Source: a virus
Lineage: Duplodnaviria > Heunggongvirae > Uroviricota > Caudoviricetes
DNA length: 27,751 nucleotides
Direction: 5' to 3' (one strand)
Virus record (IMG/VR): IMGVR_UViG_2879742664_000010
The notes beneath the pieces are model-generated. The model made no database searches, was not told the origin of the DNA, and saw nothing but the letters and a program-made list of their open reading frames with translations. Of this stretch, positions 14,034 through 19,074 are shown piece by piece. Numbering within the stretch: position 1 is the stretch's first letter; the number at the start of each line of letters is the position of its first letter. Made by a program: the position numbers and the translations under genes.

Positions 14034-14140
14034 GCTACAGACAACGTAAAATAAGTAAGCGTAAACTGACCGCCGTATGTAGCCATTAAGCCTGTATTGG
14101 TAACGTAGGTGCCCACCTTTTCAACTAGTGGACACCTGTT

Positions 14141-14560
14141 ATGGAACAGAAAGCATTATCTGCAGAACCCCGCAGATCATTTTCAAATGAGTTTAAACTT
14201 CAAATGGTTAAACTGGCTTCACAACCAGGAGCCTCTGTTGCCCGTATTGCCCGGGAACACGATATCAATGATAACCTGCTGTTCAAATGGCTCAGGCTCT
14301 GGCAGAACGAAGGGCGCATATCGCGGCGTCTTCCGGTAACAACCTCTTCTGACACTGGCGTTGAATTATTACCTGTGGAGATAACGCCGGATGAGCCGAA
14401 AGAACCTGTGGCTGCTCTTACTCCGTCTTTATCTACTCAGACTACAGTTAGTGCCAGCTCCTGCAAGGTGGAGTTCCGTCACGGTAACATGACGCTGGAA
14501 AATCCTTCACCAGAGCTGCTCACAGTGTTGATCCGTGAACTGACCGGGAGGGGACGATGA
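14141..14560 (+). CDS. IS66-family OrfA (TnpA), outer copy
   Basis: 139-aa ORF; differs from the inner copy at one residue (ALTPSL vs ALTSSL). Confidence 0.85.
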   Translation: MEQKALSAEPRRSFSNEFKLQMVKLASQPGASVARIAREHDINDNLLFKWLRLWQNEGRISRRLPVTTSSDTGVELLPVEITPDEPKEPVAALTPSLSTQTTVSASSCKVEFRHGNMTLENPSPELLTVLIRELTGRGR

Positions 14561-14907
14561 TCTCACTCCCGTCAGGCACCCGCATCTGGCTCGTTGCTGG
14601 GATAACCGATATGCGTAAGTCTTTCAACGGGCTGGGTGAACAGGTACAGCATGTGCTGAATGATAATCCCTTCTCCGGTCACCTGTTCATCTTCCGTGGC
14701 CGACGGGGTGACATGATTAAAATCCTGTGGGCTGATGCTGATGGTCTGTGCCTGTTCACCAGACGCCTGGAGGAAGGCCAGTTTATCTGGCCTGCTGTGC
14801 GTGACGGCAAGGTATCCATTACCCGCTCGCAACTGGCAATGCTCCTCGATAAGCTGGACTGGCGTCAGCCAAAAACATCCCGCCTTAATGCACTGACAAT
14901 GTTGTAA
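14557..14907 (+). CDS. IS66-family OrfB (TnpB), outer copy
   Basis: 116-aa ORF MISLPSGTRIWLVAGITDMRKSFNGL...; 4-bp overlap with orfA. Confidence 0.85.
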   Translation: MISLPSGTRIWLVAGITDMRKSFNGLGEQVQHVLNDNPFSGHLFIFRGRRGDMIKILWADADGLCLFTRRLEEGQFIWPAVRDGKVSITRSQLAMLLDKLDWRQPKTSRLNALTML

Positions 14908-15022
14908 AAATGTCATGGCCGGATTATAAAAACGGCGTAAGCGTAAACTGACCGCCGTATGTAGCCATTAAGCCTGTATTGGTAACGTAGGTGCCCACCT
15001 TTTCAACTAGTGGACACCTGTT

Positions 15023-15442
15023 ATGGAACAGAAAGCATTATCTGCAGAACCCCGCAGATCATTTTCAAATGAGTTTAAACTTCAAATGGTTAAACTGGCT
15101 TCACAACCAGGAGCCTCTGTTGCCCGTATTGCCCGGGAACACGATATCAATGATAACCTGCTGTTCAAATGGCTCAGGCTCTGGCAGAACGAAGGGCGCA
15201 TATCGCGGCGTCTTCCGGTAACAACCTCTTCTGACACTGGCGTTGAATTATTACCTGTGGAGATAACGCCGGATGAGCCGAAAGAACCTGTGGCTGCTCT
15301 TACTTCGTCTTTATCTACTCAGACTACAGTTAGTGCCAGCTCCTGCAAGGTGGAGTTCCGTCACGGTAACATGACGCTGGAAAATCCTTCACCAGAGCTG
15401 CTCACAGTGTTGATCCGTGAACTGACCGGGAGGGGACGATGA
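15023..15442 (+). CDS. IS66-family OrfA (TnpA), inner copy
   Basis: 139-aa ORF. Confidence 0.85.
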   Translation: MEQKALSAEPRRSFSNEFKLQMVKLASQPGASVARIAREHDINDNLLFKWLRLWQNEGRISRRLPVTTSSDTGVELLPVEITPDEPKEPVAALTSSLSTQTTVSASSCKVEFRHGNMTLENPSPELLTVLIRELTGRGR

Positions 15443-15789: not shown

Positions 15790-15819
15790 AAATGTCATGG
15801 CCGGATTATAAAAACGGCC

Positions 15820-17412
15820 ATGAATCAAAAATACCTCATTCGCATTGCAGAACTGGAATGCCAGCTCCGTCAGAAAGACCAGCAACTGAGTCTGGTTGAA
15901 GAGACGGAGGCCTTCCTGCGCTCTGCACTGGCCCGCGCCGAAGAAAAGATCGAAGAAGATGAACGGGAAATAGAACATCTGCGGGCTCAGATAGAAAAAC
16001 TGCGCCGGATGCTGTTCGGTACCCGTTCTGAAAAACTGCGTCGTGAAGTTGAACAGGCTGAGGCCCTGCTGAAACAACGCGAACAGGACAGTGATCGTTA
16101 CAGTGGGCGGGAAGACGATCCGCAGGTTCCCCGCCAGTTGCGACAGTCTCGTCATCGTCGCCCGTTACCGGAGCATCTGCCCCGCGAAATAAATCGCCTG
16201 GAGCCAGAAGAAAGCTGTTGCCCGGAGTGTGGCGGTGAGCTGGATTATCTGGGGGAAGTCAGCGCAGAACAACTGGAACTGGTGAGCAGCGCTCTGAAAG
16301 TGATCCGCACAGAACGGGTAAAAAAAGCCTGTACAAAATGTGACTGCATCGTTGAAGCACCGGCACCATCCCGTCCGATAGAGCGTGGTATCGCGGGCCC
16401 GGGGTTACTTGCCCGCGTGTTAACGGGAAAATACTGCGAACACCTGCCACTGTATCGTCAGAGTGAAATTTTTGCCCGTCAGGGTGTCGAACTGAGCCGT
16501 GCATTACTCTCCAACTGGGTTGACGCGTGCTGCCAGTTAATGACGCCGCTGAATGATGCTCTGTACCGTTATGTAATGAACAGCCGCAAAGTTCACACTG
16601 ATGACACACCAGTAAAAGTGCTGGCACCGGGCAGGAAGAAGGCGAAAACAGGATATATCTGGACGTATGTCCGGGATGACAGGAATGCCGGTTCGCCAGA
16701 GCCTCCGGCGGTCTGGTTCGCCTACTCACCGGACCATCAGGGTAAACATCCGGAGCAGCACCTTAGTCCCTTCCGGGGTATCCTGCAGGCAGATGCGTTT
16801 AATGGTTACGATCGGCTGTTCAGTGCCGAACGAGAAGGCGGCGCGTTGACGGAAGCAGGATGCTGGGCTCATGCGCGGCGCAAAGTCCACGATGTATATA
16901 TCAGTACCAAAAGCGCGACAGCGGAAGAAGCCCTGAAACTAATCGGTGAGCTGTACGCCATCGAGCACGAAATACGCGGGTTGCCGGTGTCTGAACGCCT
17001 GGCGGTCAGGCAAATGCAGAGTAAACCGCTACTGACTTCCCTGTATAAGCTGATGCAGGAGAAAGAACACACGTTATCGAAAAAATGCCGTCTGAGAGAT
17101 GCGTTCCGGTATATCAGGAAGCACTGGGTTGCGTTGTGCAACTTCAGTGATGATGGTCTGGCTGAGGCGGATAATAATGCCGCGGAAAGAGCGCTTCGTG
17201 CAGTCTGTCTCGGAAAGAAAAACTTTATGTTCTTCGGCAGCGATCACGGTGGAGAGCGTGGTGCGCTACTGTACGGGCTGATCGGCACCTGCCGACTGAA
17301 CGGTATCGATCCGGAAGCGTATCTGCGCTATATCCTGAGCGTACTGCCGGAATGGCCTTCCAACCGTGTTGACGAACTCCTGCCATGGAACGTAGCACTC
17401 ACCAATAAATAA
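15820..17412 (+). CDS. IS66-family transposase OrfC (TnpC), inner copy
   Basis: 530-aa ORF with an N-terminal coiled-coil/leucine zipper, a CxxC...CxxC zinc motif and a DDE-type core. Confidence 0.88.
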   Translation: MNQKYLIRIAELECQLRQKDQQLSLVEETEAFLRSALARAEEKIEEDEREIEHLRAQIEKLRRMLFGTRSEKLRREVEQAEALLKQREQDSDRYSGREDDPQVPRQLRQSRHRRPLPEHLPREINRLEPEESCCPECGGELDYLGEVSAEQLELVSSALKVIRTERVKKACTKCDCIVEAPAPSRPIERGIAGPGLLARVLTGKYCEHLPLYRQSEIFARQGVELSRALLSNWVDACCQLMTPLNDALYRYVMNSRKVHTDDTPVKVLAPGRKKAKTGYIWTYVRDDRNAGSPEPPAVWFAYSPDHQGKHPEQHLSPFRGILQADAFNGYDRLFSAEREGGALTEAGCWAHARRKVHDVYISTKSATAEEALKLIGELYAIEHEIRGLPVSERLAVRQMQSKPLLTSLYKLMQEKEHTLSKKCRLRDAFRYIRKHWVALCNFSDDGLAEADNNAAERALRAVCLGKKNFMFFGSDHGGERGALLYGLIGTCRLNGIDPEAYLRYILSVLPEWPSNRVDELLPWNVALTNK

Positions 17413-17451
17413 GCGTCAATACGGTGCTCCGTTGACGCTTACAAAACGGCC

Positions 17452-19044
17452 ATGAATCAAAAATACCTCATTCGCATTGCAGAACTGGAATGCCAGCTCC
17501 GTCAGAAAGACCAGCAACTGAGTCTGGTTGAAGAGACGGAGGCCTTCCTGCGCTCTGCACTGGCCCGCGCCGAAGAAAAGATCGAAGAAGATGAACGGGA
17601 AATAGAACATCTGCGGGCTCAGATAGAAAAACTGCGCCGGATGCTGTTCGGTACCCGTTCTGAAAAACTGCGTCGTGAAGTTGAACAGGCTGAGGCCCTG
17701 CTGAAACAACGCGAACAGGACAGTGATCGTTACAGTGGGCGGGAAGACGATCCGCAGGTTCCCCGCCAGTTGCGACAGTCTCGTCATCGTCGCCCGTTAC
17801 CGGAGCATCTGCCCCGCGAAATAAATCGCCTGGAGCCAGAAGAAAGCTGTTGCCCGGAGTGTGGCGGTGAGCTGGATTATCTGGGGGAAGTCAGCGCAGA
17901 ACAACTGGAACTGGTGAGCAGCGCTCTGAAAGTGATCCGCACAGAACGGGTAAAAAAAGCCTGTACAAAATGTGACTGCATCGTTGAAGCACCGGCACCA
18001 TCCCGTCCGATAGAGCGTGGTATCGCGGGCCCGGGGTTACTTGCCCGCGTGTTAACGGGAAAATACTGCGAACACCTGCCACTGTATCGTCAGAGTGAAA
18101 TTTTTGCCCGTCAGGGTGTCGAACTGAGCCGTGCATTACTCTCCAACTGGGTTGACGCGTGCTGCCAGTTAATGACGCCGCTGAATGATGCTCTGTACCG
18201 TTATGTAATGAACAGCCGCAAAGTTCACACTGATGACACACCAGTAAAAGTGCTGGCACCGGGCAGGAAGAAGGCGAAAACAGGATATATCTGGACGTAT
18301 GTCCGGGATGACAGGAATGCCGGTTCGCCAGAGCCTCCGGCGGTCTGGTTCGCCTACTCACCGGACCATCAGGGTAAACATCCGGAGCAGCACCTTAGTC
18401 CCTTCCGGGGTATCCTGCAGGCAGATGCGTTTAATGGTTACGATCGGCTGTTCAGTGCCGAACGAGAAGGCGGCGCGTTGACGGAAGCAGGATGCTGGGC
18501 TCATGCGCGGCGCAAAGTCCACGATGTATATATCAGTACCAAAAGCGCGACAGCGGAAGAAGCCCTGAAACTAATCGGTGAGCTGTACGCCATCGAGCAC
18601 GAAATACGCGGGTTGCCGGTGTCTGAACGCCTGGCGGTCAGGCAAATGCAGAGTAAACCGCTACTGACTTCCCTGTATAAGCTGATGCAGGAGAAAGAAC
18701 ACACGTTATCGAAAAAATGCCGTCTGAGAGATGCGTTCCGGTATATCAGGAAGCACTGGGTTGCGTTGTGCAACTTCAGTGATGATGGTCTGGCTGAGGC
18801 GGATAATAATGCCGCGGAAAGAGCGCTTCGTGCAGTCTGTCTCGGAAAGAAAAACTTTATGTTCTTCGGCAGCGATCACGGTGGAGAGCGTGGTGCGCTA
18901 CTGTACGGGCTGATCGGCACCTGCCGACTGAACGGTATCGATCCGGAAGCGTATCTGCGCTATATCCTGAGCGTACTGCCGGAATGGCCTTCCAACCGTG
19001 TTGACGAACTCCTGCCATGGAACGTAGCACTCACCAATAAATAA
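17452..19044 (+). CDS. IS66-family transposase OrfC (TnpC), outer copy
   Basis: 530-aa ORF identical to the inner copy. Confidence 0.88.
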
Positions 19045-19074
19045 GCGTCAATACGGTGCTCCGTTGACGCTTAC

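Follow-up and report, generated by a model that had tools for sequence, protein, structure and literature searches.

A nested pair of IS66-family elements in a decayed ipaH-linked prophage of Shigella flexneri serotype 6

Members of the IS66 family of insertion sequences (IS) are recognized by terminal inverted repeats (IRs) of 20-30 bp that begin with GTAAGCG and by 8-bp direct repeats (PMC11946415). In a 27,751-nucleotide stretch of DNA held as the virus record IMGVR_UViG_2879742664_000010 (the window, by which we mean the whole stretch) a 2506-bp element of this kind is present twice with one copy lying inside the other, and we hold with high confidence that a second copy of the element transposed into a resident copy, which sat at an older deletion joint in a decayed prophage. 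The element resembles the three open reading frame (ORF) group of the family (IS66, IS679, ISEc8 and others) in its ORF order, the overlap of orfA with orfB, its GTAAGCG-type IRs (20/24 positions matching) and its 8-bp target duplications, and at the level of the family we saw no difference. Its orfA (helix-turn-helix), orfB (TnpB_IS66) and orfC (DDE) are consecutive, and in addition to the domains given in Table 1 OrfC contains the zf-IS66, LZ_Tnp_IS66 and IS66 C-terminal domains (PF13005, PF13007, PF13817) and matches the NCBIfam model NF033517 transpos_IS66 (2.6e-134). An earlier reading of this DNA, made by a model from the letters and their ORFs (the sequence-only reading), had assigned the element to IS66 and the HTH_Tnp_1, TnpB_IS66 and DDE_Tnp_IS66 matches together with the GTAAGCG ends bear that assignment out.

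In ISfinder usage an isoform has more than 95% amino acid identity in the transposase and/or more than 90% DNA identity to the reference element. The transposase TnpC of the window element is 95% identical (512/537) to one labelled ISEc43 by PGAP (WP_097518219.1, from E. coli 23CRST047) and falls in the same 90% protein cluster, while the DNA of the ISEc43-labelled copy is alike in organisation and about 93% identical over the whole element. The window element falls about 30 bp short of that copy (2506 bp to a match of 2536 bp), and its TnpC is without 7 residues near the N-terminus. ISEc23 shares the family and gene order with a TnpC 90% identical to ours, and in an ISEc23-type copy from another E. 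coli locus (L025, described below) the first 30 bp of the left IR (IRL) are identical to those of the window element. ISSfl3 has the same family and gene order, but with a TnpC identity of only 50% to the PGAP-labelled WP_004967149.1 the window element, though from a Shigella host, is not ISSfl3. PGAP labels the window TnpC (WP_001072392.1) only as 'IS66 family transposase'. The element would on these comparisons be a close relative or isoform of ISEc43, as judged against PGAP-labelled copies. Reference comparison, to which the sequence-only reading had left the naming of the element, gave closeness to an ISEc43-labelled transposase (95%). The inner copy is 99.96-100% identical to a copy on the S. 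flexneri plasmid NZ_CP026812.1, with one mismatch. Shigella plasmids of the invasion type carry copies with 99.7-100% identity to the element, which is found at many chromosomal sites too. Near-identical copies with duplications at many unrelated sites suggest that the element is mobile.

The gene string in the window looks like an orfA-orfB tandem followed by two copies of orfC, which the sequence-only reading had resolved into one element inserted in its twin. Direct comparison of the segments within the window agrees with this: positions 14937..17442 are a contiguous intact IS66-family unit of 2506 bp, and the segments on either side, 14055..14936 (882 bp) and 17451..19074 (1624 bp), likewise add up to 2506 bp and rebuild the inner unit with a single mismatch. 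This lies at unit position 369 (window 15305 vs 14423) where the inner copy has T and the outer copy C, giving Ser and Pro respectively at OrfA residue 95, the one residue by which the copies had been said to differ; the two OrfB proteins are identical, as are the two OrfC proteins. The octamer AAAACGGC is found at 14929-14936 and at 17443-17450, directly bordering the inner unit on the left and right as had been claimed, and within the inner unit it occurs once, at 15811-15818 (unit 875-882), in the 30-bp spacer between orfB and orfC and 1 bp upstream of the orfC ATG. The insertion point between orfB and orfC is therefore correct. An independent repeat finder returned two perfect direct-repeat families, 14055/14937 with a spacing of 882 and 15811/17443 with a spacing of 1632. 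The inner and outer elements have the same orientation, and their ends are imperfect IRs (20/24 match) each beginning GTAAGCGT. In the composite, which measures 5020 bp, there are four termini, and the six ORFs, all intact, follow in the order A-B-A-B-C-C. No ORF is interrupted by the inner insertion and the outer operon is split, 2.5 kb separating the outer orfC from the orfA-orfB to which it belongs. This orfC lies 40 bp beyond the stop codon of the inner orfC, in the same orientation.

For the site and the element elsewhere we used public loci (numbered L002 to L025), among which a look-up with the neighbouring Dit-like protein gave the same site in ten chromosomes and a look-up with OrfA added L018. 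The inner copy in the window is complete and contiguous, both new junctions fall exactly at its termini, and subtraction of the inner element and one octamer gives the uninterrupted recipient, in which the target is single: copies without an interruption, at this chromosomal site (L008, L011-L013) as well as elsewhere, contain AAAACGGC once, at unit 875-882, as the sequence-only reading required of an intact element. With the junctions exactly at the IS termini and the recipient exactly restored, an insertion made by the transposase is the only economical reading. A chance match of 8 bp in the flanks has a probability of about 1/65,536, and here the recipient is also restored exactly. Among the loci compared, eight other independent full-length copies at unrelated sites have perfect 8-bp flanking duplications (TAATATTG, GAACGTGA, GACGTACC, GACGGAAG, TTTTATTC, TGATACAG, AACCAATC and GTTTGATG), so that 8 bp, put forward earlier as the size expected of the family, is the size made by this very element, which marks the nest as a product of transposition. 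No target consensus is evident among the nine octamers of the nest and the eight other insertions.

Formally the structure amounts to tandem duplications of 882 and 1632 bp lying side by side, and unequal crossing-over, replication slippage or tandem duplication within or between IS copies might be proposed to have made it without any transposition, the more so as recombination between these repeats does operate at the locus (L007, L010). Recombination however has no reason to break at IS termini, whereas both new junctions lie exactly at the terminal IRs (GTAAGCG... and ...CGCTTAC), and the two repeats have exactly 8 bp in common, which is the length of the duplication at the eight independent insertions. 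We consider an origin by recombination so improbable as to deserve almost no weight and the earlier preference for transposition over recombination stands.

The site is found in several allelic states. A single copy is present in L008 (CP000036), L011, L012, L013 and likewise L018, and the window carries the intact nest. L005 has both nest junctions together with a further IS and a partial duplication, in unit positions [1-882][1-2506][875-1213]-IS-[557-2506], for which we found no simple order of events. L007 and L010 read [1-882][1-2506] and equal the window minus the 1632-bp right repeat, with 99.95-100% identity otherwise, a form expected from recombination between two adjacent repeats. 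L009 has the left junction followed by an IS-associated deletion, and L004 and L006 have a single copy with orfC interrupted by the same extra IS. The extra IS in these sister genomes is a 1310-bp IS3-family element with ends TGAACCGCCCCGGG, which we take to be IS629-like; it is not present in the window. In L004 (12585-13889) and at the same coordinates in L006 it lies in orfC with a 3-bp duplication (GGG), in L009 (12431-13737) it points the opposite way at the same right junction and the deletion beside it reaches back to inner position 514, and in L005 (14762-16070) it is flanked by unit positions 1213 and 557. By single-nucleotide polymorphisms (SNPs) in the flanks two clades can be told apart, one nest-bearing (the window, L004-L007, L009 and L010) and one single-copy (L008, L011-L013 and L018). 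The nest-bearing clade is S. flexneri serotype 6, and its accessions include CP099865 from the archetype strain CCH060 and CP162059 from strain 604193 (PMC11708030). That the nest is shared and decaying within this clade goes beyond the sequence-only reading, as does the deletion joint with the missing duplication of the outer copy set out below.

Some of these comparisons fit our reading less well, though none of them touches the core claim of an insertion of one copy into another. A fully intact nest was seen in none of the 10 related loci listed, L005 with its extra IS coming closest; two 1-bp homopolymer indels set the window apart from CCH060 (L007), which calls for caution over assembly quality; and the inner and outer copies of L005 both have Pro95. 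The absence of the intact nest from those 10 loci and the 1-bp deletions, which lie in G runs and are typical of long-read consensus errors, would fit an assembly artefact in which repeats were mis-joined or over-expanded, the true state being a single copy or the [1-882][1-2506] form of CCH060. This we regard as highly improbable. The left nest junction recurs in L005, L007, L009 and L010, which are public assemblies made independently, and L005 has the right one too, so that neither can be an error specific to the assembly of the window. Nor would assembly software create a joint that runs exactly from terminus to target with 8 bp duplicated, and the Pro/Ser SNP tells the two left repeats apart.

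Transposition into the resident copy need not have happened only once. Were the octamer a preferred target the nest could have arisen repeatedly, with L005 (Pro/Pro) formed independently of the Pro/Ser genomes, and it is the allele combination of L005, different from that of the other nest-bearing loci, that speaks for this. It is nonetheless very unlikely in view of the nine target octamers without a consensus, of nest-bearing loci that form one clade with nearly identical flanks (0-3 bases apart), and of the position of the other IS66-in-IS66 nest known to us from the search, which is a different one inside tnpC. This second, independent nest adjoins cnf1 in the chromosome of E. coli S3 (NZ_CP107142.1, L025:3663-9013), where an ISEc23-type 2532-bp element (4744-7275) with an 8-bp duplication, GAACATCT, interrupts the tnpC of a different IS66-family element after about 180 bp. 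The two nests are alike in having an inner element that is intact with both termini, in the same orientation as the recipient and flanked by an 8-bp duplication of recipient sequence. They differ in that donor and recipient are the same element (1 nucleotide apart) and the target is a spacer in the window, whereas in L025 they are different members of the family and tnpC is broken. A 120-bp query across the left junction had no contiguous match in PLSDB plasmids or in complete E. coli genomes, its two-piece matches being other arrangements of which one is the L025 nest at its different position. An exact 33-mer of the junction had no match in the GTDB species representatives, as expected because Shigella is folded into E. 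coli there.

As Pro95 is common to the ISEc43 and ISEc23 relatives and to the plasmid copies it is the ancestral OrfA allele. The Ser95 allele occurs at at least 7 unrelated chromosomal sites (L014, L015, L019-L023), and the inner copy has Ser95 in the window, L007, L009 and L010. The simplest reading is that a chromosomal copy with the Ser allele jumped into a resident copy with the Pro allele, which we hold at moderate confidence because L005 has Pro in both copies and would require either gene conversion or a different history with a non-Ser donor. Alternatively the resident copy, or its counterpart on the sister chromatid, could have been the donor, for instance through a copied-out intermediate that went back in nearby, and mutation or gene conversion would later have brought about the Pro/Ser difference. 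Many IS elements commonly re-insert close to where they were, and the Pro/Pro state of L005 fits a pair that was originally identical. Because the Ser95 allele of the inner copy is also found at many chromosomal sites of the same genomes, a separate donor needs no extra mutation and we consider self-insertion unlikely, though deserving of some weight.

The anatomy, the duplication, the 8-bp length made by this element, the allelic series and the older deletion joint are all observed; we infer the donor and the order of the later events and propose the following course. An ISEc43-like element was already resident at the deletion joint in the decayed ipaH-associated prophage when the DDE transposase TnpC made a staggered cut of 8 bp, as is typical of the family, in the orfB-orfC spacer, 1 bp upstream of the orfC ATG. 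The incoming copy, probably from one of the many chromosomal copies with the Ser95 allele, was pasted in the same orientation with duplication of AAAACGGC, and the recipient retained the ancestral Pro95. The nest so made contains two adjacent direct-repeat pairs (882 and 1632 bp) and is for that reason unstable. In sister genomes homologous recombination has since dropped the 1632-bp repeat and the 1310-bp IS3-family element has added insertions and deletions.

The S. boydii Sb227-like loci (L008, L011-L013, L018) have a single copy with Ser95 at a deletion joint identical to that of the Pro95 outer copy of serotype 6. Here a 'nest and collapse' might be envisaged, in which a derived copy enters the resident one and recombination over the repeat pairs then deletes the resident parts, so that the IS allele is replaced. 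Such a process would leave the incoming allele at the old site within the old flanks and without a duplication, and if true would account for the Ser95 single copies of the Sb227-like clade. Ordinary gene conversion or mutation in either lineage could explain the same data, and we consider the collapse doubtful.

The prophage that hosts the composite in S. flexneri serotype 6 is decayed and linked to ipaH. To the left of the composite are phage tail genes encoding an SLT-domain protein, a Dit-like protein and a baseplate plug. To the right the composite is followed by a truncated IS2 and by what is left of a wedge (DUF2612) gene, its 3' part, and then by tail-fibre genes, IS600, tail-fibre fragments and an ipaH effector gene. 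Around the outer copy a target duplication is missing, the flank being TAAAATAA on the left and CCATGATA on the right. The truncated IS2 matches positions 174-1331 of a complete IS2 in L002 with 99.9% identity, and in comparison with the intact prophage of enteroinvasive E. coli CFSAN029787 (L024) homology stops at 3610 and resumes at about 7002. Gone with the missing 3.39 kb (L024 3611-7001) are the hub, spike and baseplate J genes, a hypothetical gene and the 5' end of the wedge gene. With this phage DNA and 173 bp of IS2 missing the outer copy marks a deletion joint, which is common to all related Shigella loci examined and therefore predates the nest. Either an IS66-mediated adjacent deletion or recombination between two IS66 copies would explain it. 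Simple insertion of the outer copy into the wedge gene had been considered as the joined flanks gave one reading frame, and was rejected since the intact enteroinvasive E. coli prophage shows this to be a coincidence of the 3.39-kb deletion joint. We also discarded plasmid matches from S. dysenteriae and S. boydii (82% of 13000-20500) as sharing the IS66-IS2 joint, their IS2 being separate and several kb away.

Table 1 Features of the nested element and of its surroundings in the window
Feature	Coordinates	Strand	Remarks
Outer copy, left part (unit 1-882: IRL, orfA, orfB, spacer through octamer)	14055..14936	+	881/882 identical to inner
Outer IRL, GTAAGCGTAAACTGACCGCCGTAT	14055..14078	+	20/24 vs reverse complement of right end; begins GTAAGCG
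Outer orfA, TnpA accessory protein, 139 aa, Pro95 (ancestral)	14141..14560	+	
Outer orfB, TnpB_IS66 accessory protein, 116 aa	14557..14907	+	Identical to inner OrfB; Pfam call made on inner
Target duplication, left copy, AAAACGGC	14929..14936		
Inner intact element, 2506 bp; IRL 14937-14960, right IR (IRR) 17419-17442	14937..17442	+	
Inner orfA, 139 aa, Ser95 (derived)	15023..15442	+	PF01527 HTH_Tnp_1, E=4.6e-15
Inner orfB	15439..15789	+	PF05717 TnpB_IS66, E=2.6e-36
Inner orfC, DDE transposase TnpC, 530 aa	15820..17412	+	DDE_Tnp_IS66 PF03050, E=5.3e-96
Target duplication, right copy, AAAACGGC	17443..17450		
Outer copy, right part (unit 883-2506); orfC 17452-19044, IRR 19051-19074	17451..19074	+	100% identical to inner
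Phage baseplate plug gene (13731-14033) and first hub-gene bases; phage homology ends at 14054	13731..14054	+	PF22479 Pam3_gp18
IS2 minus 173 bp at IRR end, abutting outer IS66 IRR	19076..20233	-	TnpB residues 1-253 of 301; IS2 TnpA
Phage wedge gene (DUF2612/Phage_Wedge1), 3' part; phage homology resumes	20234..20559	+	
IS600-like copies, four	1078-2234, 3642-4798, 9442-10598, 22791-23947		
IS1 copies, two	1-698, 7552-8249		
ipaH E3-ligase effector gene, runs off window end	25940-27751	-	

It is plausible that the outer orfC is expressed by read-through from the side of the inner orfC; a scan of the nest for promoter and terminator consensus sequences gave nothing above the shuffled expectation and is uninformative on this. 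With four termini, units of 2.5, 3.4, 4.1 and 5.0 kb could in principle be mobilised.

The nest is an ordinary instance of a known process, involving an element that is already in public genomes and only generically annotated there. Shigella genomes are saturated with IS copies, the window alone holding IS1, IS2, IS600 and IS66-family copies, and nested insertions are therefore to be expected. What the analysis offers is mainly annotation, in that it explains the odd A-B-A-B-C-C string of IS66 genes returned by gene callers and identifies the outer element as one interrupted IS and not as fragments. Beyond annotation its significance is small, the origin of the deletion joint and the decay series being only mildly interesting extras. 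The allelic series neatly illustrates how a nest forms and then decays: the nest is intact in one form, lacks the 1632-bp repeat in another and has been rearranged by a second IS in others. It might be used to mark lineages within S. flexneri serotype 6. The IS66-associated 3.4-kb deletion inactivated the baseplate module of the prophage beside the ipaH effector gene.

A few smaller observations concern the remainder of the window and the other copies of the element. Positions 1-12000 and 22500-27751 are an IS-ridden prophage remnant with Rha/Ash and cI-like regulator genes and tail-fibre fragments. Apart from the 1632-bp repeat, five SNPs and two 1-bp G-run indels the window is 99.95-100% identical to CCH060, the indels being 1-bp deletions in the window at about 12624 (in the gene at 11004-13024) and about 6040. 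The deletion at about 12624 frameshifts the SLT-domain tail gene, leaving an ORF of 561 aa in place of 673 aa, and could be a real pseudogenisation or a homopolymer sequencing error. At the copy of the element in L021 (5915-8420, CP055124) the left flank is GTTTATCC and the right flank is GCC followed by GTTTATCC, an 8-bp duplication shifted by three extra bases on the IRR side for which imprecise cleavage of the end or a later small insertion are possibilities.

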